This document shows positions 19,278 to 53,900 of a DNA stretch of 64,000 bases, piece after piece. Source of the stretch: Elusimicrobiota bacterium (lineage in GTDB: Bacteria; Elusimicrobiota; Elusimicrobia; FEN-1173); NCBI GenBank assembly GCA_016706425.1, contig JADJJR010000001.1:491133-555132 (forward strand). The letters are read 5' to 3'. Made by a program: the position numbers and the translations under genes. Every line of letters starts with the position of its first letter. Position 1 is the first letter of the stretch. The notes beneath the pieces were generated by a model. It did no database searches. It was given only the letters and a program-made list of their open reading frames with translations, and was not told the origin of the DNA.

Positions 19278-19622
19278 TCAGCCGCGAAAAATAAAGTAGA
19301 CGGCGCCCAGAACGCAAAGGCCGGCCCACACGTAATTCCATTTGAGGGGCTGGCCCATGTAATAGACCGTGAAGGGGACAAAGACCGTCAAACTCACGAC
19401 TTCCTGGAGGATTTTGAGTTGGGGAAGGGGCATCGCCCCGTGGCCGATTCGATTGGCGGGCACTTGCAGGCAGTATTCAAAAAACGCGACGCCCCAACTG
19501 ACCAGGGCGACGAAAAACCAAGGGCGGTGGGCCATGTCCTTCAAATGGGCGTACCACGCGAAGGTCATGAACAGGTTGGAGCCGATCAAAAGGCCCGTGG
19601 TCTTGAGGAACACCGGATTCAT
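19278..19622 (-). CDS. Small DMT-superfamily membrane protein (DUF486-like)
   Basis: 114 aa, MNPVFLKTTGLLIGSNLFMTFAWYAHLKD..., with 4 TM helices. It starts at an ATG with a GGAGG RBS. The upstream 86 codons of the track ORF are an artefact overlapping the opposite-strand gene. Confidence 0.65.
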   Translation of the reverse strand: MNPVFLKTTGLLIGSNLFMTFAWYAHLKDMAHRPWFFVALVSWGVAFFEYCLQVPANRIGHGAMPLPQLKILQEVVSLTVFVPFTVYYMGQPLKWNYVWAGLCVLGAVYFIFRG

Positions 19623-19725
19623 CGTGCCTCCCTGGGGCGACGCGGCGCCATTATATCTTTTGTTGTTTGCGAAACGCCCTCCGCTTTGTTTAAAATCATG
19701 GATACGATCGATTGAAGGAGGACCC

Positions 19726-20181: not shown

Positions 20182-20813
20182 CCCCGCGCGTTCGCCGCGC
20201 CGCGACCGCGGCGGGGCTCTTGACCACCCTGGCCGTCGCCGTGGCGATCGGGCGGCAGACCCCGTCCGTCGCCTCGGGCGCGCCCCCCTACCGTTGGTTG
20301 GGCCCCCCCAACGCGACGGTCGTCTTGGAGGAGTTCTCGGATTTCGAGTGCCCCAAGTGCGCCCAAGCCCAGACCGATATTAAAAATCTCCAGAACGCCG
20401 CCCCCGACCGGATCGCCCTGGTGTTTCACCACGCGCCGCTCCGCCAGCACGCGCACGCGGTTCCCGCGGCCCGGGCCGCCGAGGCGGCCGGGCTCCAGGG
20501 CAAGTTTTGGGAATACGCGGAGCGGTTGTTTGAACGCCAAAAAGAGTGGGCGCCCCACCCGCCGGTGGCGGGGCACGACCCGCGCCCTTTTCTGTTGGCC
20601 TACGCCCGGGACCTCGGCCTCGACGCGGCGCGCTTCACGGCGGACATGGACGGGACGTTGACCGCCGACCGCGTCCGTCAGGACCGGGAAACCGCCGACC
20701 GGATCGCCATCCCCGCCACGCCGACGGTGTTTGTGAAAGACCGGATGCTGGTGGGGTCCTCCCAAATCGCTTCCCTGGGCCCCCGGTTCGTGCAGTGGGC
20801 GCTGGACCAATGA
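20178..20813 (+). CDS. DsbA-family thiol:disulfide oxidoreductase (thioredoxin fold, CPKC active site)
   Basis: The GTG overlaps the preceding stop. A signal/TM segment is followed by EEFSDFECPKCAQ (CxxC). The pattern ...FHHAPL...KFWEYAERLFERQKEW is DsbA-like. Confidence 0.75.
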   Translation: MTPRVRRAATAAGLLTTLAVAVAIGRQTPSVASGAPPYRWLGPPNATVVLEEFSDFECPKCAQAQTDIKNLQNAAPDRIALVFHHAPLRQHAHAVPAARAAEAAGLQGKFWEYAERLFERQKEWAPHPPVAGHDPRPFLLAYARDLGLDAARFTADMDGTLTADRVRQDRETADRIAIPATPTVFVKDRMLVGSSQIASLGPRFVQWALDQ

Positions 20814-29718: not shown

Positions 29719-32700
29719 TTAGGCTTGGGTGAGGAGGGTCCGGAGGTTCTCGATTTCCCGGGCGATGGCCGCGGACAGCCGGGCCACACCGATGATAACA
29801 AAACCCTCGAGCGGGACGACCGCCTCGTCGTTGCGCGCGATGACGCGCGAACCCCGACCGATGGGGTTCTCGGCGCCCGCGGCGTTCCAGCGGTCAATCC
29901 AATCCACCAACGCCGTGAGCACCAACCGACCCGCGCCGTCCGCCAGGCCCGGGGCTTCGCCGGGGGTGACGAAACGGACGCGCGCGCCACGCCGCGCCGC
30001 TTCGGTCCAAAGGTCCCCCAGGGGGCCCGGTCGGTCCGCCGGCACCACCAGCGTCGTCCCCGGTTGGAGGGCGCCGACGAGGCCGGAGAGATAACGCCGG
30101 GTTCGATCCCGTTCTTCCGCTTCCCAGGAGTCAAACCCCAAGAGGTTCACGTGCAGAGTGGTTTCATTGCGCCTCTCCGCTTCCCGCGCGGCGGCGGCGC
30201 CGGTTTCCCGCAGGGCCGACCCTTCCAGGGCCGCCGCGGTCACCCGGCCGTCGAGAATCGCCCGGGCGGTGGGCGCGTCCGCCGCCAAAAGGCGGACGGT
30301 GGGGACAAATCCTTCTTCCAGTTGATCATCGGAAGCCCCGACGACGCGCCGGCGCAGGTCCTCCAGACCGGTGGCCCCCCAATAATTGTCCCCGTTCTTA
30401 AAGACGGCGGGGGGCACGTCGAAACGGACGGGCCCGGCCTCGCCCAAAAGCAAGGATCGCAACAGCGCCGCGCGCGCGGCGCTGTCGTCCGTCAGTCGGC
30501 CGGTCCCGCGCCGCAGGAAAACGACGCCTCCCAGCATGGCCAAAGCCGTGGCGGGCGTCCCCGGGGCCTCGGACACCCGTTGCGGTTTGACGTCCACCAC
30601 GATTTCCGCCCCGCTGTAGGGCACCCGGAAACGGACTTCGTACCGCCCCCCGCCCAGATTTTTCGAACTCAGATAGACAACGCCCGGGTAACGCCGCTGT
30701 TCGGCCAGGCGAACGGCCGCCCGCAGGGGGGCCGTGAGCAGGTCCACCTCCTTGGGGGAGAGGACGTGGGGAGCCGCGGTAATACTTCCATCGAGAAAAC
30801 GGTGGGCCATCCAGCGTTGTGCGTTGATTTGATTTTGGTCGTAGGCGATCCGAACCACGGACAAACCCGCGTAAAACTCCATGGCGCGGGCGGTGTCTTC
30901 AAGCGCCATGCCCTCGTCCTGGGTGGGTGTGATTTTCTTGGAGCGGAGCCGCTCGCTCCGTTCCAAATGGGACAGTTCGTGAACCAGGGCCACAAACACA
31001 TACGCCGGTTGAGCGTCCGCCCCCCCGATGTAAATAACAGAACGTCCGTTTCTTAATTCGGCCGCGGCCGCGGCCTCCGGCCCTTTCGGCGCCACGACGA
31101 TGTGGGGGCGCGTCTTTTCCAGGACGTGGCGAAAACGTCCCTTTTCGAATCTCCCCAAATGTTCGATGGTGGAGGCCAGGACGGAGGCGCTGGTGGCGTC
31201 GTTCGCGTTCCTCAGGAGGGCCGCGAGGTCGGTCCCGGCCGGAAGCGACCTGGCCAACTCCTTTTTTAAAGCCGGAGCAATTTTTTGCGTCACCAGGGCT
31301 TCGTTGAGGGACCAGGCCGGGGGGGGCGTCCCTTGGGCAACGACCAAAAGGGGAAGAACGAACAACGCCGCGGCCAGCATCAATGGAGCGACGGCGCGCG
31401 CCAACGGGCCGCCCAGCCGGGGCATGTTCTCGATAACGTTTCGTGCGGCCCGGGACCAACGACGCATCCCGGCCAACACCGCCCCCGCCGGTGGAATGGC
31501 GGGGGGGATCGTTGCCTCCGCGGTGGGGACCCGACGCGGCGCCCGGGCGATCGTCTCGCTGAGCGCCATCCGGACCGAAACGATTTGGGGAACCAGCCGG
31601 GCGCGGGTTTCAGGGCCCGCGTCCGTTCCCGCCATCTTCCAGGACAGGGCCAAACTCATTTCAAGGCCGACAGCGGCGGGCGCGCCCAGGGAGAGGGCCC
31701 GCGCCGCCGCGGAGGCGTGGGCGGCGGTGACTTTTTCACGAATCTCCTCTCGAAGCTTCGCGATCAATTCGGCGCGCGACTCCTCCGGGGAGCGGTCGGG
31801 GCGGTCGGCCAGGCCCGCCAGTTCCGCGGGTGCGAAATGCAACAACACATAGTCCGCCACGGCATCCAGACTTCCCAGATGGATGTTCTCCGAACGGAGG
31901 GATTCGCCAATTCCCCAGGCGACTTCCACCTGGGTCACCAGGGGCTCCCCGGAGGGAAACCGCAGGGTTTCCCCTCCAAAAAAAGCCTGTTCCTCCCGGG
32001 GCGATAAACCGACGCCGCGGGGGTAGCCCTCGCGGGTCCCACGCCACCACATCTTGAAGAAGAAGGGCCACGCCGCCCACGCGGGGATGTTGACCAGCAA
32101 TTTTTCGGCGGAGGGATCGTGCATGACACCCCCGGTGATTTTGTCCCTCAACAGAGCCGCGAGGCGAACGGGGAACCGATCGGGGGTGTTCGCGCCCCGC
32201 GCTTCCCCCGGAAGGCGCAGCCAACCCTCGTTGTTCAGAAAAGTCAGAGCGTAGCCCAAATCTTTTCCCAGGGGCACGCCCAGCCAACGGCGCGCGGCCA
32301 ACCGGAGTCGAATCGCCCGAACGGCCGCGCGGGGGAAAGGGATTTCAATCAACACATTTTCGCCGTCGCCGTAGGTCATGAGGGACGGCGGCACGTCGAA
32401 CAATCCCTCCTCTTGCCATTTCTCGGCCAGACGGCCGCTTTGCCCGTTCAAGGCCCGGTCCATGGAGGACAACGACCCCAGCGGGGCGGGGGTCGCGTCG
32501 GGCATGGCTTCGAGGGCCCCCAGGGTGAGGTCGGGGGCGATGGCCAAGGCCTCGCGGCCCCCGGCGGGGACGGCCGGGGGGCGGCGGTTTATCCAGCCAT
32601 ACAATGTCGCGGCAAACCGGCTCATTCGCGTGGGTTCCACGGCCGGGGACGGCCCGGCCGGATCGCCAAAGCCGGTGCGGGTGTGGGCGAAGAAGGTGGA

Positions 32701-35700
32701 CGGGTCCTCGTAACCGGCCCGGTGTTTTTCATACCGGGTTTTCAATCGGTGGGGGGTGTCGAAGAGCCAGTGAATTCCATTGCCCAAGAACGTCCCCAAT
32801 CCCAGGGCCCCTCGAATGGGGGCGCGCCATAAAGCGTTGAACGCATGGGGCAGAGCGCGCCTCGCCCAACGGGCCGCGACGACGGCCGTTAACGCCCACG
32901 GAAGGGGGGACCCAATTTGGTGTGGAGCGGGTGGGCCCGCCGGCGGGGTCGCCGGCGAGTCGCCAAAGTCCGCCACGCTTTCCCAATGGATCTGGGAATC
33001 CAAGAAGGTTGTGTCCGATGGGGGGCGGGGTTTTTGCCGCGCCCACCGCGCCACGATCGCGCCGGCCAACCCCAATCCTGTCACCGCCATCAAAATCGGG
33101 TTGGTCAGGCGGAAAGTCGCCGCTGCCAGGCCGCCTGTTTCAGAAACGGGGGCGACCGCGAGGGAGCCGACCGACGGGACCAAGGGAACCGCCGCGCCCG
33201 CCGCGGCGGTTTCAACGGCCGCCGGCGCCCCCTCGATCGCCGCGCGCAGGAAGATTTCCTGGCCGGGGAAGATCAAATTGGGATCGACCAAACCGTTTAA
33301 GCGGGCCACGTCCATCACGCGGGCGACGAGTTCCGCGTTGTTGCCCCCCTCCGCGAATTGGAGGATGCGCCACAGGGAATCGCCCTGTTCGACGAGAGCT
33401 TTCAGACCGCCTCCTTCCAACGGGATCAGAGTGGCGGCGCCGGCGACGTCAACGGGCGCCAAAAACAGGGCGGTCAGGAGGAGGGCGCCTAAAGCGACGC
33501 CCCAAAGGCTCCCTCGCCGCGTCGGCAAAGGATCGAAAACGGTGGCCTCCCGGGTCTCGGCAAAGTCCCGCCGGGCGGGGGTCAGAGTGCCGTTGGTGGA
33601 AAAATCATGGATGATGATGTCGTTGCCGTCGCGAACCACCTCAAAGTGGAGCCGGGACACCCCCCCCAACATCGCGGGGGCGAGGCCCAGGCGACGTTCC
33701 ATCACCCCCCGACCCATCACAAGGGGGCGTTGACCGTCCCCTCCCGTCGGCGCGTCGCGGCGCGCCCCGTTGGGCGCGAGGAGGAAAAGCGCTCCGTTCG
33801 TCGGATCGATGTCGAGTACGAAAGTCGGGCCGGCGACCACGGGAACCGGCAAATCCGATATGGGCAATCGCGAGACGCGGCGCTCGCTGTTTCGCAAAAG
33901 ACGGACGGTTTGGGTCGCATGGCCCCAGGCTTCAACGACCCGGGTCTCATAAAGCGTGGGGTCGGCTGTGGTTTTGAAAGCGTTCCGCAACCGGACCACC
34001 CCGGGTTTGAGGGCCTCCGGGCTCAGGGGTTCCCGGGCCAAATCGAGGAGGGCCGCGGTCAAATGGTCCTGGGCGGGGACGGTGGGGGGACGCGGGGTCT
34101 CGAGGCCGGGGTTCGCCGGGGCCCGCCGGTCCTGAAAAAGCGCGTTCGGGGAAGGCGCAAGCACGGTGGGCTCGAAGGATGGCCCCACGGGGGGCCGGGC
34201 CCCATCGGGGGAGGGCGATCCCGCGAATGGGTTCCATCGCGTTTCTTCCACGCCCTCCATCAACCAACGGAAAAAGGCGGACCCCCGCAACGCCGCGGGC
34301 AGCGGACGCGCCCCAAACCAGGTCGTGACGGGGGCCGCCAACCAGGTCACCAAGAGAAAAATCACCAAAGGGGTAAAGGAGATGTTGTACGCCCAGAAGG
34401 CGACGATCCAAGCGGTTGCGGCCAATGCGACGATGCCGGTGGATCGAAAAGCGTCCGCGAGCGTGAGCCCCCGGGAGGCCCTTTCGGCCTCGGATTGAAC
34501 TTTCCAGGTCAATCGGTTTCCAAGGATTCGAGCCGTTGCTCGGAAAGCGCGCAAGGGCCCGAAAACGATTTCCGGGAAATACATGAAGGGGGATGTCACT
34601 ATTTCCATCCCGCCGATCAAGAGGTCCCGGGCCGCGTTGGTCCCCGCCCGAGCGGCGGTTGACCGGTCGCCCGCCCACAACGCTCGAAGCGCGTCGATCG
34701 CGGAGCGGGCGGGCTGGTACAGTTTGGGCAAGAGAACCAACCCCACCCCGACGATCAAGAACGAAGCCCACATTAAAACGGGGTTGGAGTGCACGATCGG
34801 GGAGCCGGGAAAAGCCGACAGCATTGTCATGGATGTCCAGACAATGAAAAGGGGCGCTTGCACGAAAATGCGCGTGGAGTAATGGGCGATATAAAGCGCC
34901 TCAAAAGAGAAAGGAACGACCTCCTTGGACCACGACCAACTCCAGGGCGCCTTTTGCCCCGCGGTGCGGGCGGTTCCGCGAGCGAAGAGGTCGAACAGGC
35001 GCCCGAAAATCCCCGGCGATAAGTAGGCGGCGTTCAACAGGTCGCCGACGGTCCATCGAAGGGCCTGTTCTTGTCGACTGATCGGGTTGGCCGGGGTGTC
35101 CTCGTAGAACGCAACATCTCCGGTGTACGCCGGGTTGAGAAACAGAGCTTCAATCGTGTCGTGGCTGAGCAGGGCGGGGGGCAAAACCTCCCGGGGGGAG
35201 GCGGGGGTCCCGACAAATTGGTCCAAAAAGGTTTCGTTGCGGGCGAGTCCTTTGCCGTAGGCCCCTCCCCGCCCGAGAAGTTGAAACTGGGTTTCCGGGA
35301 TGCGGGACATCCACCGGTGGGTCAGGGTGCTGCGGAATTGGGTCCACGTTTCGAGGCGGGCCGGAAGAAGGCCGGGTTGAATGAACCCACGGTCCGGGTT
35401 GGCGGCGCCGATTTCAACCAAACGGCGAATTGTTCCCGGTGGCGCTCGGTTGTCGGCGTCCATTAAAATGCTGAAGACAACGGGACGGGGGTTTTCCCCG
35501 AACGAGGAGCGCCCTTCCCGCAGGCCGGCAATGTCCGCGGCCATTCGTTGGTCCAACGCGTCGATTTCGGGGTCGTTGGGGCCGGGGGGCGGTTCAATGT
35601 TGCCGCGCGCGCCGAACGTCGGTTTCTCCGCGCTGCGATCGCCCCGGTCCAAATAGTTGATCGGGCGTTCTTGGCCCCGCGTCGCCAACGCCATGAAATC

Positions 35701-38700
35701 AAGGTACTGACCGGGTTTCTTTAATACGGTCGAGGCGCGGTGGAGGTATTTGAGACCTTGGGCGGTCCGCTCGATCAGATCGAGAACGGCGGCGTCCCGC
35801 GCGCCTCCCGTCAGACCCGCGGCCTCCCAGCGGGTCTCATGGAACAACCAAAAATCGTCCCGCGGTCCGGGGACGGCCCGACCCGCGCGTCGTGCCCCGG
35901 CTTCTTCGGATAAAATCCGCCGTATCTGTTCACGCGCGTTTTCGATCGAATCCAATTCGTGGGTCACGATGCCCCGGGGCGCGGAGGCGCTGACGAGCAC
36001 GGCGATCACGTTCCCCCGGGGATCCAGATTGTCGAGGTACGACCGCGTCATATTGTCCACGGCTTCCGCCGAGCTTTCCCGGTGGGTCGACCGGAGCATG
36101 TACGTCAACGCCGTCCGGGCACCGTCGGGGACACCGTCGCTGAAATTCGAACGCCGCAACACCGCGGCGCCCTTCACGGGGAAAGCGGAACGAAGCGTGA
36201 GGAGAATCAAATCGGCCACGCCCCCGTTCAAAACGAAGGTGATGGCCAAATACAGCGCGGCGATCGGGGTCGAGGAGGCCGACCAATCGAGCGTCAGCGC
36301 GAAGAGCCCGGTCAAGGCCGTTGCGAGAACGAGGACTTCTCCCAGATAACGACGCGTCGCGGGCAATGCGGGAGCCGTCCGGCGGCCCGGCTCCATCGGT
36401 TGGTTTCGAAAATCCGCCCCCCGCCCTTCGCCGTCCCGGCCGCGCAGGCCATCCACAAAGCCCGCCCAGGCCGCCGTTAGCACGCGGGGATTCCGGGTCC
36501 GGACCGCCACCCGGAGGACTCGGAGAATGGTTAACGTTGTTTCGACCAGTCGCAACAGGGGTTTGGAAGCGAGGGGGGAATTGTAAGTGAAGATCAAAAC
36601 CATAGATCGGACAATGTAGTAAGTGCGCGCGGGAGAAAAATTGCCATAAAGGTCCCCGTCCAAACTCTGATGGACGTTGTGTAAAATTTTTTCCCGCACG
36701 GGCGCCATGGCGATTTGGTCGCCGCCTTGTCGCACACGGGAAAACCAATCGCGGTCTTCGTTGCCGAAAAAGTAGCCTGATTTAAAAAGCCCGTGTTTGG
36801 AAAAAGCCTCCAAACGGACCAGGACCGCCGCTGTGGCCACCCCATCCACAGCGGCCTTCTCCCCGGTGGGGACGCCGTTGCCCCGGTCCGAGGCCCATTG
36901 CCCGGGCCAGCGCCACACGTTGTGGTACCAGTTTCGCCACACCCGATCGGGACGGTTTTCAAAGTGGAGGGGCGGCGCCCAGGCCACCCGGTCCGGGGAA
37001 TCGGACTCCGCCGCCACGACCATATCCTCCAAGCTGGACGCCGTGAGGCGCACATCGCTGTCGACCAGGAAAACATAATCCGGTCTGTCGGCGGGCGCCC
37101 GTTCGAGGAGGCGCCTCAGTCCGACGTTGCGACCCTCCGCGGCCCCGGTGTTCCGGTCGTTGACGATCAATGTGCTCCGGGGGACTTGCGCCACGGCCCG
37201 GGCCAGGGTTTCGGCCGGCGCGTCGGTCGAGGCGTTGTCGACCACGATCAACTCCCAAGGGGTTTTCCCAGCGGGCCAGGCGGCCATTCGTTCGATGGCG
37301 CGCACCGTGTCGCCGGTGTCGTTGTGGGTCAATATCAGGATCGCCGCCCGGGGGACGGTGCCAACGGGGCGCGCGGGTCGGGGGGTGGGAGGCGTGGGTC
37401 GTCCCGCGCGGGGGAATCGAATGACGAGAAGGTTCACGGTCGCGTGCAGGCCGAGAAAAACGAGATAGGCCACTTGGGCGGGGGTCAAACCCACGACGGC
37501 CGTTCCATCGGCGGGCAGGCCCAACAGGAGACCCGCCACCGCGACGAGCCCCGCCGCCAAGGCGGCGTTGCCCTTGGCACGGCGGCGATCGCGGGTGAGG
37601 AAATCCCCGAGGTGGAGCACGGCGTAAGCGGCGAGGGACAGACGGACGAACAAATCGAAATCCCCCGGCAGGCCGACGGCCGCGCCGATCCCGGCGGCGA
37701 TGAGCCCGGCGAGACCGGCTTCCGTCGGCACCGAAAGGCCTCGGTAGCGGGCCGCGGTGACATGCAACGCCTTGGGGGTGGACGCGTTCCACAATCGCGG
37801 GAGCCAGAACATCATTCCGCCGACCGTGTTTGGTCCCGGGTCGAAGTTGTTTCGCCAGCGGGCCGCCCAGGTTTCGGCGGCGTCGTTGAACCGGGCGTGG
37901 AGGTCGTTGGTGCCGATGCGGAACGACACGCCGCCCCGCAGGGGGTCGCGGGACACCGTCACGCCGGGTTCGGCGACGGTGGTCCGTCCGGTTTGCATCA
38001 GGTGCTGGAGGGCCAAGTAAAAACGCTGAACCACGCCCGGCCCCGCCAGCGCGATGGGGCGCGAGAGGTAAACCCGCTCGCCCGAGACCAGCTTTTCGAT
38101 GGGCAGGGGGTCCTGGGCGAGGAGGTCCAGATAGGGGTTGTCGGCGGGGATCTCGCGCATCGCGGGAGCGACCACCACGTAGGACACCTGTTGGCGCCGC
38201 CAGAGGGCCATCAAACCGTCGGTGTGGAAGCCCCCCGCCACCAGCACGCCCCGGTCGGCGCCGCGGGCGGCGATGGCGTCGAGGAGGTTTTGGGACAGGG
38301 CCGCGTTCCGGCTCAAGGCCAATTCGCAGAAATCCTCAAAGGGTTTTAATTCCGCGGCCGTGAAGTCCGTCGCGTCCGCGGCCGGGTCAAGGCCCTGGTA
38401 CCGGGCGTTCAGGGCGAGGAGCCCGTCGCGCCGCGCCGTGTAATCGCGCCAGTCCGTCGGGGCCAGCGTGTGGGCGAAGGCTTTTTCCAAAAGCGCCAGG
38501 TCCCGCGCGATTCCGACCAGCGCCCGTTCCCGGGGGGTCCGGGCCAAGGCGTTTTGGACGCGATTTCGACGGACGGCGATTTCCTCCAAAAGGGCCGCGC
38601 GATCGATGGCGTCGGCCGAGGACACGTAATCGATGTAAGCGGAAAGGGGGGCGAAGGCGCGGAGGTCGACGCCGTGGGCGCGCGCCACGGACCGGAGGCG

Positions 38701-39735
38701 CGCGTGGTATCGACCCACGCTCATCCGGCCCGCCCGCACGTCGAGGCCGCTGGAAACGAGGTCCGCCAAGGCGGGCCTTGGCAGACGGTCCACCAGGGCG
38801 TTGACCAGTCGGCGCCGCTCGACTTCCACCGCCTTGAAATCCAGCGTTCTTTCGAGTCGGGCGATTTTATTCAGCGCCTCGATGTTGGGCGCCTTCGGTA
38901 ACGCGCGCGCCGGAACCGCTCCGTTCAAATACTCCAAATACGCCGTGAGCGACAATCGACCTTCGTCGTGGTCGCGCGTCCGCCGGTGAAACGCCCGCAG
39001 GGCCGGCGAAGCGTGGGCGAGCTCCGCGCGGTCGAGGCGGTCTTGGAATCGCCGGAGACGGTCCCGAAGCGGGGCCGCGTTGGCCCGCGCGGCGCGGAGC
39101 GCGGCCACGTTTTGGTGGTAAAGGTCGTCGTCCTCGGCGCCGATGACGAGAGGGCTTCGGGGCGCGGTGAGCGCCGCGTGTTCCGGGCCGGCGATGAGGC
39201 CCCGCTGAAGGAGAAAATCGGCGATGGTTCCGGTTGTCGCGCTGTCGGGAAAACGCCGCAGGGCTTCGACATCGATGGGGCCCGAAGCCCCTTCGAGCGC
39301 CACGGGGCCCGCGGGATCGGCGTCGGCCAGGCGGCCCACCAAGGCGGCGATGTGCCGTTGGGCGTCCTCAACGCCGTGGGCGTCTTGAATGTGGACGATG
39401 AGCGGCGCTCCGGAACGCGGGGAAATGTGTGCTTCGCGCACCCAGCCGTGTTCGGCCACCAGGGCCGAGAGCCAATCGGACGGCGAAGCCGGTGGGGCGG
39501 CTGGTCGGTCGAAAGCGAGGGGAGCCGCGCCCGGGAGGGCCGCCAGAAGGGGGGAAGGATTCACACTCGGGGCGTGTGTCGATTCTTGTGATCGCAACCG
39601 GCGGGAAATCTCCCGCCGGGAATCCCAAAGAGAGCTTTCTTGGGCGTAGAGGCCCACCCCTTGAACCGCGAAAACAACGGCGGCCAGGGCGAAACGCAAA
39701 ACAGGGGCGGGGCGGGGAATCAAAGTAAAGTTCAT
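29719..39735 (-). CDS. Giant (about 3338 aa) membrane-anchored multidomain protein. Order: signal peptide, conserved N-terminal module, TM cluster, GT2 glycosyltransferase, OpgH-like processive glucan synthase with TM helices, FHA domain, TM, LysM domain, large unknown region, zincin-like HExxH, C-terminal region
   Basis: The ORF is continuous. Its start is taken at ATG 39735 (MNFTLIPRPAPVLRFALAAVVFAVQGVGLYAQE, a signal-like segment with an AGGAA RBS) rather than the track's upstream ATG at 39858. Domain evidence is given in the separate domain entries. Confidence 0.8.
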   Translation of the reverse strand: MNFTLIPRPAPVLRFALAAVVFAVQGVGLYAQESSLWDSRREISRRLRSQESTHAPSVNPSPLLAALPGAAPLAFDRPAAPPASPSDWLSALVAEHGWVREAHISPRSGAPLIVHIQDAHGVEDAQRHIAALVGRLADADPAGPVALEGASGPIDVEALRRFPDSATTGTIADFLLQRGLIAGPEHAALTAPRSPLVIGAEDDDLYHQNVAALRAARANAAPLRDRLRRFQDRLDRAELAHASPALRAFHRRTRDHDEGRLSLTAYLEYLNGAVPARALPKAPNIEALNKIARLERTLDFKAVEVERRRLVNALVDRLPRPALADLVSSGLDVRAGRMSVGRYHARLRSVARAHGVDLRAFAPLSAYIDYVSSADAIDRAALLEEIAVRRNRVQNALARTPRERALVGIARDLALLEKAFAHTLAPTDWRDYTARRDGLLALNARYQGLDPAADATDFTAAELKPFEDFCELALSRNAALSQNLLDAIAARGADRGVLVAGGFHTDGLMALWRRQQVSYVVVAPAMREIPADNPYLDLLAQDPLPIEKLVSGERVYLSRPIALAGPGVVQRFYLALQHLMQTGRTTVAEPGVTVSRDPLRGGVSFRIGTNDLHARFNDAAETWAARWRNNFDPGPNTVGGMMFWLPRLWNASTPKALHVTAARYRGLSVPTEAGLAGLIAAGIGAAVGLPGDFDLFVRLSLAAYAVLHLGDFLTRDRRRAKGNAALAAGLVAVAGLLLGLPADGTAVVGLTPAQVAYLVFLGLHATVNLLVIRFPRAGRPTPPTPRPARPVGTVPRAAILILTHNDTGDTVRAIERMAAWPAGKTPWELIVVDNASTDAPAETLARAVAQVPRSTLIVNDRNTGAAEGRNVGLRRLLERAPADRPDYVFLVDSDVRLTASSLEDMVVAAESDSPDRVAWAPPLHFENRPDRVWRNWYHNVWRWPGQWASDRGNGVPTGEKAAVDGVATAAVLVRLEAFSKHGLFKSGYFFGNEDRDWFSRVRQGGDQIAMAPVREKILHNVHQSLDGDLYGNFSPARTYYIVRSMVLIFTYNSPLASKPLLRLVETTLTILRVLRVAVRTRNPRVLTAAWAGFVDGLRGRDGEGRGADFRNQPMEPGRRTAPALPATRRYLGEVLVLATALTGLFALTLDWSASSTPIAALYLAITFVLNGGVADLILLTLRSAFPVKGAAVLRRSNFSDGVPDGARTALTYMLRSTHRESSAEAVDNMTRSYLDNLDPRGNVIAVLVSASAPRGIVTHELDSIENAREQIRRILSEEAGARRAGRAVPGPRDDFWLFHETRWEAAGLTGGARDAAVLDLIERTAQGLKYLHRASTVLKKPGQYLDFMALATRGQERPINYLDRGDRSAEKPTFGARGNIEPPPGPNDPEIDALDQRMAADIAGLREGRSSFGENPRPVVFSILMDADNRAPPGTIRRLVEIGAANPDRGFIQPGLLPARLETWTQFRSTLTHRWMSRIPETQFQLLGRGGAYGKGLARNETFLDQFVGTPASPREVLPPALLSHDTIEALFLNPAYTGDVAFYEDTPANPISRQEQALRWTVGDLLNAAYLSPGIFGRLFDLFARGTARTAGQKAPWSWSWSKEVVPFSFEALYIAHYSTRIFVQAPLFIVWTSMTMLSAFPGSPIVHSNPVLMWASFLIVGVGLVLLPKLYQPARSAIDALRALWAGDRSTAARAGTNAARDLLIGGMEIVTSPFMYFPEIVFGPLRAFRATARILGNRLTWKVQSEAERASRGLTLADAFRSTGIVALAATAWIVAFWAYNISFTPLVIFLLVTWLAAPVTTWFGARPLPAALRGSAFFRWLMEGVEETRWNPFAGSPSPDGARPPVGPSFEPTVLAPSPNALFQDRRAPANPGLETPRPPTVPAQDHLTAALLDLAREPLSPEALKPGVVRLRNAFKTTADPTLYETRVVEAWGHATQTVRLLRNSERRVSRLPISDLPVPVVAGPTFVLDIDPTNGALFLLAPNGARRDAPTGGDGQRPLVMGRGVMERRLGLAPAMLGGVSRLHFEVVRDGNDIIIHDFSTNGTLTPARRDFAETREATVFDPLPTRRGSLWGVALGALLLTALFLAPVDVAGAATLIPLEGGGLKALVEQGDSLWRILQFAEGGNNAELVARVMDVARLNGLVDPNLIFPGQEIFLRAAIEGAPAAVETAAAGAAVPLVPSVGSLAVAPVSETGGLAAATFRLTNPILMAVTGLGLAGAIVARWARQKPRPPSDTTFLDSQIHWESVADFGDSPATPPAGPPAPHQIGSPLPWALTAVVAARWARRALPHAFNALWRAPIRGALGLGTFLGNGIHWLFDTPHRLKTRYEKHRAGYEDPSTFFAHTRTGFGDPAGPSPAVEPTRMSRFAATLYGWINRRPPAVPAGGREALAIAPDLTLGALEAMPDATPAPLGSLSSMDRALNGQSGRLAEKWQEEGLFDVPPSLMTYGDGENVLIEIPFPRAAVRAIRLRLAARRWLGVPLGKDLGYALTFLNNEGWLRLPGEARGANTPDRFPVRLAALLRDKITGGVMHDPSAEKLLVNIPAWAAWPFFFKMWWRGTREGYPRGVGLSPREEQAFFGGETLRFPSGEPLVTQVEVAWGIGESLRSENIHLGSLDAVADYVLLHFAPAELAGLADRPDRSPEESRAELIAKLREEIREKVTAAHASAAARALSLGAPAAVGLEMSLALSWKMAGTDAGPETRARLVPQIVSVRMALSETIARAPRRVPTAEATIPPAIPPAGAVLAGMRRWSRAARNVIENMPRLGGPLARAVAPLMLAAALFVLPLLVVAQGTPPPAWSLNEALVTQKIAPALKKELARSLPAGTDLAALLRNANDATSASVLASTIEHLGRFEKGRFRHVLEKTRPHIVVAPKGPEAAAAAELRNGRSVIYIGGADAQPAYVFVALVHELSHLERSERLRSKKITPTQDEGMALEDTARAMEFYAGLSVVRIAYDQNQINAQRWMAHRFLDGSITAAPHVLSPKEVDLLTAPLRAAVRLAEQRRYPGVVYLSSKNLGGGRYEVRFRVPYSGAEIVVDVKPQRVSEAPGTPATALAMLGGVVFLRRGTGRLTDDSAARAALLRSLLLGEAGPVRFDVPPAVFKNGDNYWGATGLEDLRRRVVGASDDQLEEGFVPTVRLLAADAPTARAILDGRVTAAALEGSALRETGAAAAREAERRNETTLHVNLLGFDSWEAEERDRTRRYLSGLVGALQPGTTLVVPADRPGPLGDLWTEAARRGARVRFVTPGEAPGLADGAGRLVLTALVDWIDRWNAAGAENPIGRGSRVIARNDEAVVPLEGFVIIGVARLSAAIAREIENLRTLLTQA
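30800..31200 (-). other. Zincin-like HExxH motif region (DUF4157-like) near the C-terminal third
   Basis: AQPAYVFVALVHELSHLERSE (about 30961-31020) is an HExxH motif with a downstream Glu. This is motif-level evidence only. Confidence 0.35.
33270..33420 (-). other. LysM (peptidoglycan/glycan-binding) domain
   Basis: GLKALVEQGDSLWRILQFAEGGNNAELVARVMDVARLNGLVDPNLIFPGQEIFL matches the LysM consensus (..V..GDTL..IA.......l..lN.l..p.l..GQ.l.iP). A predicted TM helix precedes it. Confidence 0.65.
33560..33850 (-). other. FHA (forkhead-associated, phosphothreonine-binding) domain
   Basis: PLVMGRGVMERRLGLAPAMLGGVSRLHFEVVRDGNDIIIHDFSTNGTLTP shows the GR...D..L....VSR.H..I.......i.D.gStNGT pattern. 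Confidence 0.7.
34100..36400 (-). other. OpgH/MdoH-like processive beta-glucan synthase region (GT2 with QxxRW) flanked by TM helices
   Basis: The motifs read ...ILMDADNRAPPGTIRRLVEIGAANPDRGFIQPGL..., LLSHDTIEAL (about 35150-35176, compare OpgH LSHDfvEA) and QEQALRWTVGDL (about 35041-35075, compare RDRRWCQGNL). Multiple hydrophobic helices lie on either side. Confidence 0.7.
36650..37350 (-). other. GT2 (GT-A fold) glycosyltransferase domain of the giant protein
   Basis: AAILILTHND...WELIVVDNASTDAP...NDRNTGAAEGRNVGL...DYVFLVDSDVRL: DNASTD at about 37221-37240, a DxD-like motif and a nucleotide-sugar binding pattern. Confidence 0.75.
38150..39450 (-). other. Conserved N-terminal module shared with the plus-strand giant protein (unknown function)
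   Basis: Colinear with the plus-strand gene: ..HIQDAHG.E.AQRH...LV..L......V.LEGA.G..., APRSP, LDFK.VE.ER..L..ALV, GRY.A.L, L.AYI.Y, L.P.EW..Y, L.PFE.FC..AL.RN.AL..NLL, GVLV.GGFHT.GL, VV.AP. Confidence 0.6.
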
Positions 39736-39857
39736 TCCTAATAGCTTAATGACCCTAGGCGAATGTCGCATTAAGTGGATGTAAATTGCTTGTAACAGTG
39801 AGCCGGCGGGGAAATCGGAAAAATTTCGTGTATGATTCCCTGGAAAGGAGGAAATCA

Positions 39858-40229
39858 ATGCTTTGGCGATTGGCGGCCGATGGGGTCGCCCTCATTCACG
39901 GTTTGTGGGTGCTGGCGGTGGTCCTGGGACCCTTTTGGGCTTTGCGGCGACCGGTGGGTCGGACCTGGGTGGTGACTCTCTTGCTCGCGACGGCTTTTTT
40001 TTGGGCGTTTTATTGCCCTCTGACCGTCCTTGAAAATTTCCTCCGTTCAAATTACGATCCCGCCGGGGTGTACACCGAGGGTTTCCTGGCCCGTTACGTG
40101 CGGCCCTGCGCCGACGCCCGCCGCTGCGGTCCCGCCCTGGCGTGGGGGGTTCGTTTGTGGGCGGGCCTGTGGGTGGTCGTGTACGCTTTTTTGTGGGGGC
40201 GGGAACGCCGCCGAGCGTTGCGGAATTAA
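39858..40229 (+). CDS. DUF2784-like small membrane protein, divergent from the giant minus-strand gene
   Basis: A strong RBS GGAAAGGAGGAAATCAATG precedes it. 123 aa from MLWRLAADGVALIHGLWVLAVVLGPFW... with 3-4 TM helices. Confidence 0.55.
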   Translation: MLWRLAADGVALIHGLWVLAVVLGPFWALRRPVGRTWVVTLLLATAFFWAFYCPLTVLENFLRSNYDPAGVYTEGFLARYVRPCADARRCGPALAWGVRLWAGLWVVVYAFLWGRERRRALRN

Positions 40230-40768
40230 TTCGCCGTTTTCGGTTGTTGGACTTTGGCCTTCCGGGGGACCCCCGCGTTCACCCGGTCCAACACCTTTTG
40301 CCGGTGGGTGGGCACAAGCCATTCGAGGATCAGCCAAATCTCCCTTTTGTCGGTGGATTGAAGCACCAGGGCGGCGTTGCTTTGGTCGGGGGCCCGGTCG
40401 TCGAAACGGACCGAGGCCACCTCCGACCAGGCCATTTTGGCCGGCCCGTTCAAGCTTTGAATCGCAAGGCCGTCCTTGGTAAAACGCCACTCGATCACCG
40501 GCCGGGCGGGTCGAGCGAATAACAATCCCACCCCGCAAAGGATGGACAGCGTCGGGGCCAAAAACCCCAGGGCGCGCGCGCTCAATCCCCAATGCAAATG
40601 ACGGACCGTCCAAGGCGCCACCCGCGCGCGGAAGAAAAACGCCAAAGGCATCAACACCAACCCGACCATGGCCAGCACCGTGAAAAACAACGGCAGGGTG
40701 GGGCTCATCCAAATCAGGGTCAAATCCGCCCCTTTTTCCATCAAAGTGTAACCGGTGGAAAGCGTCAT
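40226..40768 (-). CDS. Membrane protein with two N-terminal TM helices and a PH-like (bPH/YdbS-like) soluble domain
   Basis: 180 aa. TM segments LPLFFTVLAMVGLVLMPLAFFF and ALGFLAPTLSILCGVGLLF are followed by the beta-rich ...VIEWRFTKDGLAIQSLNG...SVRFDD.... The stop overlaps DUF2784 (TTAA). Confidence 0.45.
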   Translation of the reverse strand: MTLSTGYTLMEKGADLTLIWMSPTLPLFFTVLAMVGLVLMPLAFFFRARVAPWTVRHLHWGLSARALGFLAPTLSILCGVGLLFARPARPVIEWRFTKDGLAIQSLNGPAKMAWSEVASVRFDDRAPDQSNAALVLQSTDKREIWLILEWLVPTHRQKVLDRVNAGVPRKAKVQQPKTAN

Positions 40769-47777: not shown

Positions 47778-47990
47778 ATGGGAAACACCACGATCGAAAA
47801 TACCTCTTGCAAAGAACCCCAAATCGCTTATCTTTGGATCAACGGTCCTCGACGGCGAATCCATCCGGTGGACGCCGACCTGCCCCTTCCGTTGGGGCGC
47901 GGCGTCGGCGGGAGCGGGATCTGTCGCCTTTGTGAAAAATTATTGACACCTTTTTATGCGGACAAACGAGACAAAAACCAAGTCCATTAA
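47778..47990 (+). CDS. Speculative small ORF (70 aa) with a strong Shine-Dalgarno, immediately upstream of and overlapping the start of the giant plus-strand gene
   Basis: AGGAGG lies 6 nt before the ATG. The product is MGNTTIENTSCKEPQIAYLWINGPRRRIHPVDADLPLPLGRGVGGSGICRLCEKLLTPFYADKRDKNQVH. It lies in a lower-GC intergenic region, has no homolog recognised and could be non-coding. Confidence 0.2.
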   Translation: MGNTTIENTSCKEPQIAYLWINGPRRRIHPVDADLPLPLGRGVGGSGICRLCEKLLTPFYADKRDKNQVH

Positions 47991-50900
47991 CCTTCATCGG
48001 CGTATAACGGCGGGCGGCCTGGCGGTCGCCTACGTTTTTAGCAACGTCGTTGGCGCCCACGCCGCGGAAGCGAGCGTGTGGAAGGAGCGCCGCGCGGCCG
48101 CCGTTCGGCAGCGCGCCGCCGGGGCCCAATACGCCCGTCTGCCCGGGGGATTGGCCTCCCCGGCGACCGACGCCATTTTCCCCACCCGACCCTCAACCCT
48201 GTTCCCGACCGACAACCCGCCCGGGACGGAAGAAAACGCCCCCCTGTCTCCGGCGGCGACCCGGGCCTTCGGCTGGTTGCCGGCGGCGGTGACTGCCCAC
48301 GGCGAAATCCGGCGGTTGCATGTGGCCCCCGGGGCGAACACGCCGGTGGTCATTCACCTGCAGGACGTGCACGAAATCGAAGAGGCGCAGCGCCACCTCG
48401 GGGGATTGGTGGAAGCGTTGTCCGCCGCGCGGCGCGCCGACGTGGTGGGCCTCGAAGGCGCCGTCGGCGCATTCAATTTAACCCCCTATCGCGCCGCGTC
48501 CCCCGACGTGGCCCGCGCCCTGGCCGGTGAATTTGTCCGCCTGGGTTACCTCACGGGACCCGAAGCCGCCGCCGTCGCGGCCCCCCGGTCCCCGACCCTT
48601 TGGGGGGTGGAGGACGCCGCCCTCTACAAAAAACACGTGGATGCTTTCGTCGCGTCGGAGCGGACGCGCGCCGTTTTCCTCAAACGCCTTGAGGCGCTGG
48701 ACGCCTCGGCCGCGGCCTTGCGCGGCCGGGTTTACCCCCCGGCCCTGCGCGCCTTGGACGACCGTCGCCTGGCCCACCTTGCGAAAAAGGAATCCCTGGG
48801 GGAATACACCCAATCCCTCTGGGCGGTCGCGGCCGACAAGGCCCGATTTCCGAACGTCGAGCGGTTGGTGAAGGTTTTGATGGAGGAAAAACGCCTCGAT
48901 TTTAAACGGGTGGAAGCGGAGCGGCAGGTCCTTATAGAGGCGTTGGTGCGGGTTCTTTCCCCGGCCGCCCTCGACCGCCTCATCAACCAAAGCCTGCGTT
49001 TCCGGGCCGGCGCGATGACCCACGGCCGATACTTCGCGTTTCTCCAGAATTTCTGCCGGGATCACGGCCTGCGCCTCGCCGCTTACCCGGCCCTTAACGC
49101 CTACATCGCCTACAGCCTATCGGCCGAAACGATTCACCGCGAACGGCTTTTGGAGGAGTTGGACGCCCTGGAACGGACCGCCCTGAAGGGTCTTGCCACC
49201 ACGGACGAGGCCCGGCGTCTTGTGGCGGCCCGCCGCGGTTTGGTTTTGCTTGAGAAACTCGCCCGCCACACCCTGACGCCCGCGGAGTGGGACGCCTATC
49301 GCGGGGACCGCGACGCCCTGCGTCAAATTCCAACCATCCTGGCCGGGTTGACGGGGAAAGGCGCCGAGGCCGAATTGCCCGAGGACTTGCTGGCCCCCTT
49401 CGAAGGTTTTTGCGCCGCCGCGTTGGAGCGCAACCGCGCCCTGGCCGAGAACCTCTTGAATAAAATGAAGGTTGAAAAAGCCTCGACCGGGGTGTTGGTC
49501 ACGGGAGGGTTTCACACGGCGGGCTTGTCCGAGATTTTGCGTGAAAAAGGCGTGTCGTTCGCCGTGGTCGCGCCGCGCTTGTCCCGTGTTCCCGAGGCGT
49601 CCCGCCCGCTGGACGTCTTCGCCCGCGCGCCGCTCCCCATCGAGACGCTGCTCGCCGGGGACGTCATCAATTTGGCCTACGCGCCGCTCACCCAAGTGGA
49701 GGGGACGCTGGCCGACGTCCCCCAGGGGGACGCCCGGCGGCAGGCGGCGGAAGCCCTGTGGGACACGCTTGATTCATTCCTTGGCGAAGTCAAAACCGGT
49801 TTCCAAGGCGAAGACCAAGCCCGGTTTGAGACCTGGGCCTCGGGGTTCAAGTCCATCAAGGCCGTGACCGCCCGGCCCGTAAAATTCCGCGAAACGCTCG
49901 ACGCCGTTTCCATCTATCTTGAGACGCGGTCGGGGGTGCAAAAACCCTTTGTTGTGCTGGCGGCGCCTTTGGGGGGCGAAGAAAGTTTTCCCGCCGCGAC
50001 CCCGGTCTACAGCGGTCGGTTCGCGCTGGATGGAATGGAGGCGAACGTCCGGGTTTACGATGCGCAAGACATTCCCCGCGGCGATTTGGGCGCGGTCGCC
50101 TGGGTGGACGCGGCGTCCGCTCTGCCCCGCCGTTTGTTTGCCGCGCTGCGGCGTCAGATCAACCTTCGCCGTTTGACGTCGGAGGAGCGCCGCATCGAAA
50201 GGGCCCACCGCGTCGCGATCGAAGAGGTTTCGAGGAAGAACGGCATCCCCGTCGAGAAATTGAGTCCTATTTTGGGCCACATCCGGCGCACGCGGGACCT
50301 GGTTTTGCGTTTGGGGGAAGAGCAAAACCTCCCCCTCGTGGACCGACAAATTCTTGCCGTGGCGGCCGCCGCCCACGACATGGGCAAGTTTCACGAAGAT
50401 TGCGCGGAAAGTATATTGGAAAAGCGGTACCACGAGCGCGGGTCGGCGGCGCACAGGGCGCTCGCCGCCCACGAGGAAGCGGTGTTTGAAATGTTGGCCC
50501 GGCACCAATTGAATCTGGGGCCGGACGCTGAATTGGTCCTTCGCGCCCACAGCGCCATCGGACCGCTGGGCCAACACCCGCCGAACGCCATCGAGGGCAT
50601 GACCGAACGCCACGTCCGAATGGCGTTGATCCTCGCCATGGCCGACGTCGGGGACGGTTACCGGGACATGAACCGCGATTATTTGAGAACCCGAATTGAG
50701 ACGGCCGGCTTCCCGGACACGACGGCCCTTTCGACGGAATTTCAAAAGTACGTCCGGGGAGCGGACCGCGGCGGGTTCGGCGGCGCCGCTTCCACCGCCC
50801 AGGCCGCCTTCCAAGAAACGCTGGGTCGCGGCTGGTTCGGCGTGGCCACGGAGCGGACCCTGATCGATCACGCGGTGCGCACGGTCGAAGAGGGGTTGGC

Positions 50901-53900
50901 CGCGGGGACCGATCCAAGCGACGCTCGTCGGTTGGCGCTGACGGTCGCGGCCGTTCAGAAATACAATCTCCCCGGTCTCGCCACGCCCCCGGATGTTTGG
51001 TGGCCACGGCTCGTGGAGTCCCTTTGGCTGCGGGGCGCCACGGGAGCCCCCCGCGGGGAACGTCTCGGGGCCCTGCGGGAAGAGATCAAAAAAGTCGTTG
51101 AGGGGAATCCTTCTCTGGACGCCCTGGGGTTGGACCTGCTGACTCTTTCCCTCCTGTCGCCCGACCGCGTCATCGGGTCCGCCCTCTGGAAAACCCGCGC
51201 CGAAGCGGAATCCTCCGAGACCGGGTTTGTTGAGTCGGTGCGGGGGGAACTTTCGGACGCGGAATACGAACAGATCCGATTCGTTTTAACTTTGACGATT
51301 CAAAACATCCTTCAACACGGGGCTTTTGATCCCCGAACACCGGTGGCCTTGACGGTCTCGCGCAAGGCCGGGTATCTCGTGATCGAGGCGTCCAACGGTT
51401 CTTTCTCCGAATTGCCGCTCCATCCCGACGCGGGCGCGCGAAAGACTCCGTCGGATACGATCACCTTGCCCGGCCGCGTCTACACCAAAACATCCTCCTT
51501 GCTTTTTGGGTTAATGGCCGATGAAAATCTACGGGGGCCCAGCACCAACGACGGGGAAGGGACGTCTTACGTGATCGGCGAGGTTCGTCAAAGCCCGGGG
51601 CCGGTCTCCCGGAAAGCCCTGTGGAGCGATTCCGGTCCCGTGATTAAACGTGCGGAGGGGGCGCCGCTGCGCAAAGTGTCATTCACTTACGTGGCTCCGG
51701 TGATAGAGGCGGACACGCCGACGGCGGTCTCTCTTTTAATGGCGGACGAAGCGTGGAAAAGCGCCGAGAACGCCGCGATCGCTTGGCGGACCGCGCTGGA
51801 CAACCAATTTTTGAAGAATCTGAGCGATCGGGACCGGGAAATGCGAATCGAGGAAATCTTCAACACGCTAACGTCTCTGCGGTCGCGTTTCCCCGACATC
51901 GATCGGTTCAACCTGGAAGCGGAAACGTTGTCTTTGGCCCGTGGGCCCGTGACTCTGTTGGAATGGACGGGCGCGGGTCATGCCGTGGCGGCCAAACGCG
52001 GTGAAATGGAAAACGCCCCCGACCTGGCGCGCCTCGCCCGCGTGGTGCCGACTTTGAACCTGTACCGGTTTTCCAAAATCTTGGAACAGCCCCTGGACAA
52101 TATCGCCCAGCACGGGGACCCCAATGGACCGGCGGCGGTCCGTCTGGTGTTCAATCGCGGCGCCCTCTCTTTGACGGTGTCCAACAGGACCTCGGAACCC
52201 CTTCCGGCGGAATTGGCGGCCGTTCTGTTAAAAACGCACACGCCGGCCGATGAGACCCCCCGTTTTCCCCGGGGACCGCGGTCCGGCCACGGCATCGGGG
52301 CGGCGAGCATGATCATCATGGCCAAGGGACTTTTCGCGCCCGAGGCGCAAGAGCGGCACGCGCGGGACATCCGCATCCGGTTCGCCCGGGAGGAACAGGG
52401 GGACCAGGCCCTGTTTACAACCGCGGTGGATATTCCGGCCCTGCCCCTCGGGGATTCCCAAACAAACACCAACGACGGCCAATCCGGCGCCGCGGCGGTG
52501 GCCCGTTGGTTGAACGATCACCGCGCCGAATTCCGTTTGGTGGCCACGGTCGCCAAAGCGAGCCGTGACACGGACGCGGCCATAACCACCGAGCGGGGGT
52601 CCCAAGGCTACACCGCCGTTGCGCTCCATCCTTATCCGGTGTGGCGCCACCGCGCCAAACTCGATGAACTGGTGGCCGGTTTGGAAGCGGCCGCCCCGGC
52701 CTTAACGGAACCCGGCCTTTTGCGGAACGAATGGCGGGCGCTTCTCTGGCGGGAGTTGGGGCACGCGCGCGCCGCGATCGGACCCGCCGAACCGACCGCG
52801 CCCGGGGCCGCCATCCGACTGGTGGGGGGCGACCTGTCGTCCGCGGAACACGCGCGGGTCAACCGGGCCATCCAGGCCCTCATCAAAGCGGGAAAAGCGG
52901 CGGCCGTTTACGGGGATCGCCCCGGGGTTCAAGAAAACGACAAAGCCCTCGCGACCTTGTCCCCCGCCGAGGCGACCGACGGTTTCGTCCTGGGGTTGCG
53001 CGGGATTTTGCGCCACGCTTTCGACACCGGGGAATGGCCCTCGGATTTCGATTTGATCGTGGTGGAGGGGGACATCCCGGCGGATGTGGCTTTGCACCCC
53101 GGCCATCGTCGCCACCAGGCCTATTTGCCCCGGGCCCTCTTTGACGGGTTGAGGAACCTGCTCCCCACGCTTTCCGGGCGTGCCGACCGAGAGAGCTTCT
53201 GGGAATTGATCCGGGAAATGATTCGCCACGAAATGGAACACATCCGCCACTTTGAAAAAACGGGGAAACCGGGGGGGGAGTCCGCGGTCGACGCGGTGGC
53301 CGCGTCCTCGCGGCCGCGGGCGCTCTTCCGGGTTTTGCACAGCGCGGTGGCCGCGCGGGCGGCGGGGGCCGCGCCGCGGTGGGACAATTTTTTTGACCGT
53401 TTTCGCGGAGAACGGACTTCTTATTTGCACGCCTACCTCCACCTGACGCCGGACCAACACCTGGCCATGGCCACGACCCTGGTCCGGCGGCAATACACCC
53501 GGGAAGACCGGGTCTTGGCGCAGCTTCACCTGGGGGCTGTGTTCGGCGGGTCCGACCCCTGGTCCGTCGTGTTCAAGAAAGCGCTCGCCCTGCTTAAAAA
53601 GAAGAACCTCGTCGACCAGGACCCCGAAACGGGAGACGCGTTCCCTCTCTGGAAGTTCGTTCAAGAATTGACCCGCCAGCACGCCCTGATCCGCGATCCG
53701 CGTCCGATCGGTGAAATCAACGTGATCGCGCAATCCCTGGACCAGTTCGACCCCTGGACACGGGGGGACGACGCCCGCGTCGGCGATTCCCTGCGGTTCC
53801 CCGGCCCCGGTCAATCGATGGCTTTGCCGTTGACGCGGGAGCAATTTGAAAAGCTCTTGGCGGACGGATGGTCGTCGATGAAAACCGCCGACCGGGCGGC

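Follow-up and report, generated by a model that had tools for sequence, protein, structure and literature searches.

Two divergent giant genes with a common N-terminal head

The window analyzed here is a 64,000-nucleotide stretch of contig JADJJR010000001.1 from an Elusimicrobiota bacterium (GenBank assembly GCA_016706425.1; positions 491,133 to 555,132 of the forward strand), and all coordinates are counted from its first letter. The RuvB sequence also places the source organism in Elusimicrobiota, as it clusters at 90% identity with RuvB sequences from Elusimicrobia metagenome-assembled genomes (MAGs). Two giant genes, A and B, are the subject of this analysis. Giant gene A occupies 29719–39735 on the minus strand and encodes 3338 amino acids (aa); in the open reading frame (ORF) list, its open frame is 29722–39891 (−), 3390 codons, and the ATG at 39735 is the same start as that of the orthologue P0002, whose body is 91% identical. 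Giant gene B has its start codon at 47956 on the plus strand, encodes more than 5348 aa and runs past the window end (63999); its open frame, 47947–63999 (+), has 5351 codons. An earlier note on this DNA had described the genes as divergent and 8 kb apart, which agrees with the 8.2 kb between the start codons. An Omp85-family gene, yebC, ruvC, ruvA, ruvB, spoIID and queA, all housekeeping genes, lie between them.

Genes A and B each begin with one copy of an ancient domain of ~450–500 aa that is strongly conserved, here called the head. BLASTP of the two translations gave a single colinear match between A residues 104–610 and B residues 83–577 (open-frame numbering), with 39.4% identity over 508 columns (E=6.7e-81); in window coordinates, the match spans 38062–39582 (−) and 48193–49677 (+). 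The earlier note had proposed homologous, colinear modules of more than 400 aa at 38150–39450 and about 48250–49600; the homology and the location hold, and the actual bounds are slightly wider. Every motif that it quoted is present (HIQDAH/HLQDVH, LEGA, PRSP, LDFK, SRN/ERN and GGFH). The payloads downstream are unrelated, again as noted earlier, because no further match between A and B was found outside the head at E<=1e-3. These are the only two copies of the head in the window, and the A2 profile gives 516 bits to each. The head is not a duplication peculiar to this genome: its profile matches thousands of other proteins, with E-values down to 1e-268. The E-values and the invariant columns, 12 of them across 68 diverse head copies, rule out a merely compositional similarity of the two heads.

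At the start of each head are a positively charged tail and ~21 uncharged residues, followed by a conserved E-x-x-F-W-x-x-R-R motif and then a variable Pro-rich linker. In head A, hydropathy places the charged tail and hydrophobic segment (aa 1–32) at 39640–39735 (−), and the W-x-x-R-R motif (WDSRR; a consensus in alignment A5, where W36 is invariant) lies just past the segment at 39613–39627 (−). The tail and segment of head B (aa 1–37, ...VVGAHA|AE; hydropathy and flank charge) are at 47956–48066 (+). The segment is predicted to be a signal peptide or signal anchor. Its N-terminal flank is more positive than its C-terminal flank in 124 of 140 heads and, by the positive-inside rule, the head is therefore likely to lie outside the cytoplasm. 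A cytoplasmic head was considered because of the payload of giant B, described below, but the charge bias argues against it.

Conservation was counted in 155 sequences whose identity is otherwise only about 25%. All 155 have Q117, D118, E148, G199, E295, Y370, R476, G501-G502-F503-H504 and P524, whereas H120, Q126, E201 and F300 are each found in 154. Many of these residues fall in five motifs, given here for head A (all −) and head B (all +). Motif 1 is H115-I-Q-D118-A-H120, at the end of strand 112–118, in A (39376–39393) and H-L-Q-D-V-H in B (48355–48372). Motif 2 is L-E148-G-A (39286–39297; L-E-G-A in B, 48451–48462), with E148 located 28 residues past H120 and the same His-to-Glu spacing in head B. 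Motif 3, at the end of a β-strand, is G199-A-E201-D (39130–39141; G-V-E-D in B, 48604–48615). Motif 4 is S-R476-N477 (38305–38313; E-R-N in B, 49426–49434), on the helix before the last putatively catalytic strand, and the position after R476 is either N or D. Motif 5 is G-G-F-H504 (38224–38235; G-G-F-H in B, 49504–49515). After the fold comes a conserved D-P-L-P-L-E-K-L segment (P-L-P-I-E in head A, 38095–38109), in which pLDDT is below 50 in model 1; P540, P542, L543 and G549 (P0006 numbering) are nearly invariant in alignment A5.

The AlphaFold model of head A, made with a 30-sequence alignment, has a pLDDT of 91.1 and a pTM of 0.83. Its strands are at aa 97–103, 112–118, 145–147, 197–200, 495–501 and 518–524, with a helix after each. 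Both AlphaFold models place the folded domain at aa 89–526 (38158–39471, −), and in both the β-α-β core is interrupted by an all-helical insert of ~290 aa (aa 203–490; 38266–39129, −) that includes the LDFK-x-VE-x-ER region. We infer that the head is a β-α-β sheet core split by this helical subdomain. In the model, D118/H120, E148, E201 and H504 all stand directly after strands, and the end of a strand is the usual position of the active site in parallel α/β folds.

Searches of Pfam, NCBIfam and PDB sequences returned no match at threshold on the head module, and NCBIfam had nothing of relevance for either the window proteins or the consensus sequences; in these collections, the module is not a known domain. 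Nor is it a TPR-like or other helical repeat: no TPR, HEAT or Sel1 match was found among 68 members even at E<=10, and the head has six to seven β-strands and unique invariant motifs. Within the helical insert, PF23202 (the PAH domain of ZNF598) has matches to LDFK-x-VE-x-ER in 25 of 68 heads and exceeds its gathering score once (27.7 bits versus 25), in L076:9601–11115 at residues 227–275, equivalent to ~38700–38850 (−) of the window. Centrin/EF-hand chains match the same region of the insert at E ~0.02. These similarities may reflect a real resemblance to small helical bundles or helical noise; an EF-hand or PAH identity was not adopted, despite the one member over threshold, and the likeness is treated as an unproven helical resemblance.

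Distribution of the head, its bodies and its gene neighborhood

An exhaustive profile search covering 1.84 billion cluster representatives found 9354 representatives of the head family at E<=1e-3 and 5938 at E<=1e-30. A word-indexed homologue search was nearly blind to the family (one and three matches), so the exhaustive search and a genome scan were needed. The best 150 profile matches start within the first ~160 residues of proteins of 579–7683 aa. The scan, with one genome per species, yielded 496 head loci; taxonomy, position and neighbors were taken from the best 80 of these, which are nearly all from Elusimicrobiota or Omnitrophota MAGs, with some labeled only "bacterium," UBP3 or Planctomycetia. 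The head is N-terminal in its open frame in 80 of 80 fetched loci, and many of the frames outrun the 10-kb flank, i.e., exceed 3900 aa. Single MAGs hold three to seven or more head copies (for example, at least six to seven in JADKCG01 and JANQER01). Head-bearing giant genes stand in tandem at L007, L028 and L041/L043 in Elusimicrobia MAGs, and the upstream ORFs of such arrays begin with the same hydrophobic segment and F-W-x-x-R-R motif.

These data establish that the head forms a protein family of its own, with members in the thousands, and that it nearly always stands at the N terminus of large or giant mosaic proteins in Elusimicrobiota, Omnitrophota and related uncultured lineages. Occasionally it has its own gene, which lies immediately before a giant gene or stands wholly by itself. 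In an Omnitrophica MAG (L047), the head is a separate 532-aa gene (9776–11371), followed after 8 bp by a body gene (11379–20432; 3018 aa) with its own signal-like N terminus; this natural split suggests that head and body may cooperate in trans. At L066, a head gene of 548 aa (9734–11377) truly stands alone, with ordinary small genes on either side and a greA-like ORF after it. Whether the module occurs alone or with other payloads, a question raised in the earlier note, can thus be answered: in most cases it is joined to one of many different payloads, in some it is split from its payload, and rarely it is alone. The closest database relative of giant B, P0003, was called at 968 aa on a 755-kb contig and has a cluster mate of 2765 aa; gene calling or frameshifts may be splitting such giant genes in public assemblies.

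The bodies are mosaic, in that 125 of 138 share segments, with a median of four other bodies. They are also largely unannotated: only three or four of 23 proteins of 1.5–2.9 kaa have any Pfam domain at 1e-5. In giant A, Pfam and hydropathy reveal a cluster of hydrophobic segments followed by a GT2 glycosyltransferase domain, several further transmembrane segments and a LysM domain at 33250–33393 that is exactly at the Pfam threshold. The body of A also has an HExxH motif (VHELSHL; 30967–30981, −) and, judged by eye, an FHA-like stretch (LVMGRG...LHFEVVRDG...; 33625–33723, −). B shares neither of these two features, nor the LysM domain. The body of giant B has, according to Pfam and NCBIfam, a weak HD match (50272–50547), a UDP-glucose-pyrophosphorylase-like (UDPGP) segment (54460–54687) and two glycogen-synthase-like (GlgA-like) GT5/GT1 units, one at 55960–57453 and the other further on. 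There is no hydrophobic segment between residues ~40 and ~4400 of B. Long ORFs opposite the giant genes, such as 36781–38346 (+) and 49777–51285 (−), are the usual artifact of DNA with 64–67% G+C and not genes.

Directly upstream of giant A on the same strand are a small membrane-protein ORF (40226–40768, −) and an Omp85-family outer-membrane gene (PF01103; 40796–42406, −), and the three form a possible operon. The pairing with Omp85 is not conserved in the other genomes, and no conserved neighbor gene of any kind was found beside head-bearing genes across the 80 loci. The largest flank cluster consists of large proteins from 11 loci, mostly upstream (10 of 14 members), which are probably other giant genes. 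No iron- or haem-uptake genes were found near head genes, either in the window or in the 80 loci.

Probable relationship to the TIKI superfamily and candidate function

Active TIKI, TraB, ChaN and erythromycin-esterase proteins hydrolyze peptide or ester bonds by means of a water molecule activated by His and Glu. The TIKI superfamily comprises Tiki, TraB/PrgY/GumN, ChaN, the erythromycin esterases, Bcr135/136, RRSP, PMT and HopBA1, and it is defined by a core built on a parallel sheet, to which active members add a 2His/2Glu site; PMT is a member without catalysis (PMC6254334). The site of RRSP is formed by E3900-x-H3902, E3930 and H4030, and Bcr135 has H85/E113 (PMC6254334).

The earlier note had offered a loose resemblance to the TraB/Tiki/ChaN/GumN fold as a guess. 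The guess gained independent support, all of it below threshold, and the fold is as yet unproven, as the Foldseek comparisons with the PDB were not significant. The 2His/2Glu pattern ([E/D]-x-H, a Glu ~26–28 residues on and a distal G-x-x-H) is found in the head, with Asp in place of the first Glu, and the spacing of 28 between His and Glu is the same as for H85/E113 in Bcr135 and H3902/E3930 in RRSP (PMC6254334). In an alignment of TraB/GumN proteins, the invariant positions G-x-x-H41, E67, E159, R228(-N229) and G-x-x-H252-x-x-G parallel H120, E148, E201 (or E185), R476-N477 and G-G-F-H504-x-x-G of the head. The Arg(-Asn) on the helix before the G-x-x-H strand is likewise present, and R476 aligns with R228-N229 of YbaP/TraB in hhalign. 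GGFH aligns with the G-x-x-H of PF04187 and PF01963 and with YbaP H252.

Profile comparisons converge on the same C-terminal segment. Matches to PF04187 (ChaN, Tiki superfamily) occur in 19 of 68 heads, with a best E-value of 1.1e-4 (~0.008 after multiplication by the 68 queries); they cover positions 159–204 of the 213-position model and include R-N...GGFH in every member or consensus individually inspected. With family consensus sequences, PF01963 (TraB/PrgY/GumN) gives E=0.002–0.003 and PF04187 gives E=0.003–0.02. In hhalign, the head was compared with a 34-sequence TraB/GumN profile (P=5e-4 to 3e-3) and with TraB/GumN profiles of rising diversity (P=3.5e-4 to 3e-3; probabilities 12–37%). 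The hhalign scores, 27–36, exceeded those of all 40 block-shuffled controls (maxima of 21–29) and of the reversed profile (~15). When the comparison was limited to YbaP of E. coli or to a narrow enterobacterial alignment, probabilities were 1–9%, and addition of plasmid and metagenome sequences raised them to 12–37%. In Foldseek, EreC was among the weak PDB matches of both models (E 0.8–1.2; TM 0.20–0.26), and HopBA1 appeared once.

Several observations weigh against membership in this superfamily. Comparisons with known families all stay below curated or conventional significance thresholds: the Pfam matches are below the gathering cut-offs and the hhalign probabilities are 12–37%. PF01963 scores 17.9–18.5 bits, with consensus sequences only, against a gathering threshold of 26.8, and does not match the window copies. 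PF04187 scores 12–18 bits in the listed members and consensus sequences, among which the best member is not included, against a threshold of 27.7, and has no match to the window copies at E<=10. No program paired the D-x-H...E half-site with the corresponding N-terminal motif of a known family, its assignment coming from pattern and spacing only, and hhalign pairs LEGA with TraB E159, not with E67 as expected from simple spacing. In phmmer or hmmsearch, whether the query was the head, its full profile or its N-core profile, PDB sequences gave only chance-level matches (ferritin, centrin/EF-hand and HicB-like), and Foldseek of the head models against the PDB gave nothing at E<0.1. A separate difficulty concerns export, which fits poorly with giant B. 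UDPGP-, GT5- and GT1-type domains normally need cytoplasmic nucleotide sugars; if the head of giant B is exported, the ~4400 transmembrane-free residues with enzyme-like domains of this kind would therefore be extracytoplasmic too. On balance, it is likely, although unproven, that the head belongs to the TIKI/TraB-PrgY-GumN/ChaN/EreA superfamily; at family level, it does not qualify for PF01963 or PF04187.

With regard to function, we favor, with moderate confidence, a catalytically competent, exported, membrane-proximal TIKI-like hydrolase, either a peptidase or an esterase, because the invariant set matches the 2His/2Glu (+Arg) active-site arrangement of the superfamily. The charged tail and ~20-residue hydrophobic segment would place the head outside the cytoplasmic membrane. 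There, the C-terminal ends of the strands would present the invariant Asp-x-His, Glu, Glu, Arg and Gly-Gly-Phe-His as such a site, and hydrolysis would proceed by a His/Glu-activated water, as in the Ere and TIKI enzymes. Among the known members, PrgY/TraB and Tiki are tethered to the membrane outside the cytoplasm, where these proteases trim secreted peptides or proteins at their termini. Since one constant head accompanies varying bodies, it probably carries out a step common to all of the giant proteins; speculatively, this could be processing, release or envelope attachment of its own body, or action on a shared envelope substrate. A bolder version is put forward only tentatively: the head would define a system not recognized before, in which thousands of large and giant mosaic envelope proteins of Elusimicrobiota and Omnitrophota are each processed, released or covalently attached by their own exported head, a TIKI-like protease or esterase common to them all. 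The role in targeting, regulation or catalysis suggested in the earlier note is also something that we infer.

The head could alternatively be a non-catalytic module for export, anchoring or recognition, with its conserved residues needed for binding or folding and with TPS (two-partner secretion) domains or the SLH domains of S-layer proteins as analogues. The layout of a constant head and a variable body is that of trafficking domains, the head starts with an export-type hydrophobic segment and the conserved W-x-x-R-R, an Omp85-family gene lies directly upstream of giant A, and no enzyme family is matched significantly. However, no partner gene accompanies the head across the 80 loci, there is no TPS (PF05860) or SLH signal, and L066 is a head without any body. 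The invariance of strand-end Asp, His, Glu and Arg in such divergent sequences is typical of an active site and not of a binding surface. We regard a non-catalytic module as unlikely.

A second alternative is that the head is a new α/β-plus-helical fold unrelated to the TIKI superfamily, its motif likeness being convergent or due to chance. A model with a pLDDT of 91 found no significant Foldseek match, neither model having any in the PDB nor model 2 any among viral structures at E<0.01; all of the sequence links are sub-threshold and concern mainly one short C-terminal motif, and the pairing of LEGA with E159 points the same way. Against this, two Pfam families and an independent TraB profile align the same R-N...G-x-x-H-x-x-G segment and beat the shuffled and reversed controls, and the order of five motif elements is shared, with local spacing and secondary structure that agree. 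An unrelated fold is, in our judgment, improbable.

Still less probable is a ChaN-like domain that binds a ligand or cofactor (haem or metal) for sensing or uptake instead of hydrolysis. Among the sub-threshold Pfam families, the best is indeed PF04187, "Haem-binding uptake, Tiki superfamily, ChaN," and some TIKI members, such as PMT, are non-catalytic (PMC6254334). Yet the invariant residues of the head are the catalytic 2His/2Glu + Arg set, which PMT has lost (PMC6254334), and the iron- or haem-uptake context is missing. A calcineurin-like metallophosphoesterase, which would have the motif series D-x-H, G-D-x-x-D, G-N-H-[DE], H and G-H-x-H on a two-sheet sandwich, was rejected, as PF14582 matches weakly in only two of 68 members, the conserved columns contain neither the G-D nor the G-N-H-E motif and no phosphoesterase is among the listed top 50 Foldseek matches of either model, though many have been solved.

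Implications and comparison with known systems

Huge proteins are especially numerous in a few bacterial phyla, Elusimicrobiota and Omnitrophota among them (PMC11573180). They are described as poorly conserved and as having nearly no recognizable domains, their N-terminal regions generally lacking identifiable domains too (PMC10066038; bioRxiv 10.1101/2023.11.21.568195). No description of the head domain was found within the searchable literature. A conserved, probably catalytic N-terminal domain in more than 9000 sequence clusters provides a common classifier for such proteins and could become a Pfam-type family, and it is a defined, expressible target of 450 aa for biochemistry and structure determination. 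It also gives a concrete hypothesis for how giant proteins are handled, namely processing or anchoring by a TIKI-like hydrolase. The head is probably a very large, architecturally unusual and previously unannotated branch of the TIKI superfamily; if this is true, the TIKI/TraB/ChaN/EreA superfamily gains such a branch. Should the bolder version above hold, the giant proteins of these phyla, otherwise unannotated, would have in the head their first common functional handle.

In overall layout, the head resembles the TPS domain of TpsA/CdiA proteins, a constant N-terminal module with very long variable bodies; a further likeness is the presence of several paralogues per genome, some of them in tandem. 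The TPS domain is a β-helix, whereas the head is modeled as α/β plus helical, and the head has neither a PF05860 match nor a conserved Omp85/TpsB partner, the Omp85 gene being beside giant A only. For these reasons, both a TPS domain and a TPS/TpsB system were rejected as identities.

ChaN (Cofac_haem_bdg, PF04187) provides the best matches with natural sequences, in the R...G-x-x-H region. Its structure (PDB: 2G5G) combines a parallel-sheet domain with a helical subdomain, similar to the model of the head. The match is nevertheless sub-threshold and confined in most members to the last ~45 positions of the model, and the head differs from ChaN in lacking a haem-uptake context.

The TraB/PrgY/GumN proteins (PF01963; E. 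coli YbaP, Enterococcus PrgY/TraB, Xanthomonas GumN and metazoan Tiki) share with the head the order of elements, strand-x-x-His, strand-Glu, (Glu), helix Arg-Asn and strand-Gly-x-x-His-x-x-Gly, and their C-terminal segment aligns with it in both hmmscan and hhalign. Several of the TraB/GumN proteins compared have, by eye, signal-peptide-like or membrane-tethered N termini, and the head also appears to be exported. The head differs in its first motif, which is Q-D-x-H instead of G-[ST]-x-H, in its ~290-aa helical insert and resulting length (~450 aa versus ~260) and in serving as the N-terminal head of giant multi-domain proteins.

EreA/EreB/EreC, Bcr135/136 and RRSP of MARTX have in common with the head the 2His/2Glu pattern with [E/D]-x-H and a Glu exactly 28 residues past the His (PMC6254334). 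The Ere enzymes, unlike the head, are small cytoplasmic proteins. RRSP sets a precedent for TIKI-type domains as modules of giant multi-domain exoproteins, although it is an internal effector module and not a constant N-terminal head. An architecture with a constant enzymatic head and a polymorphic body would follow a logic like that of polymorphic toxins or MARTX, by a distinct mechanism.

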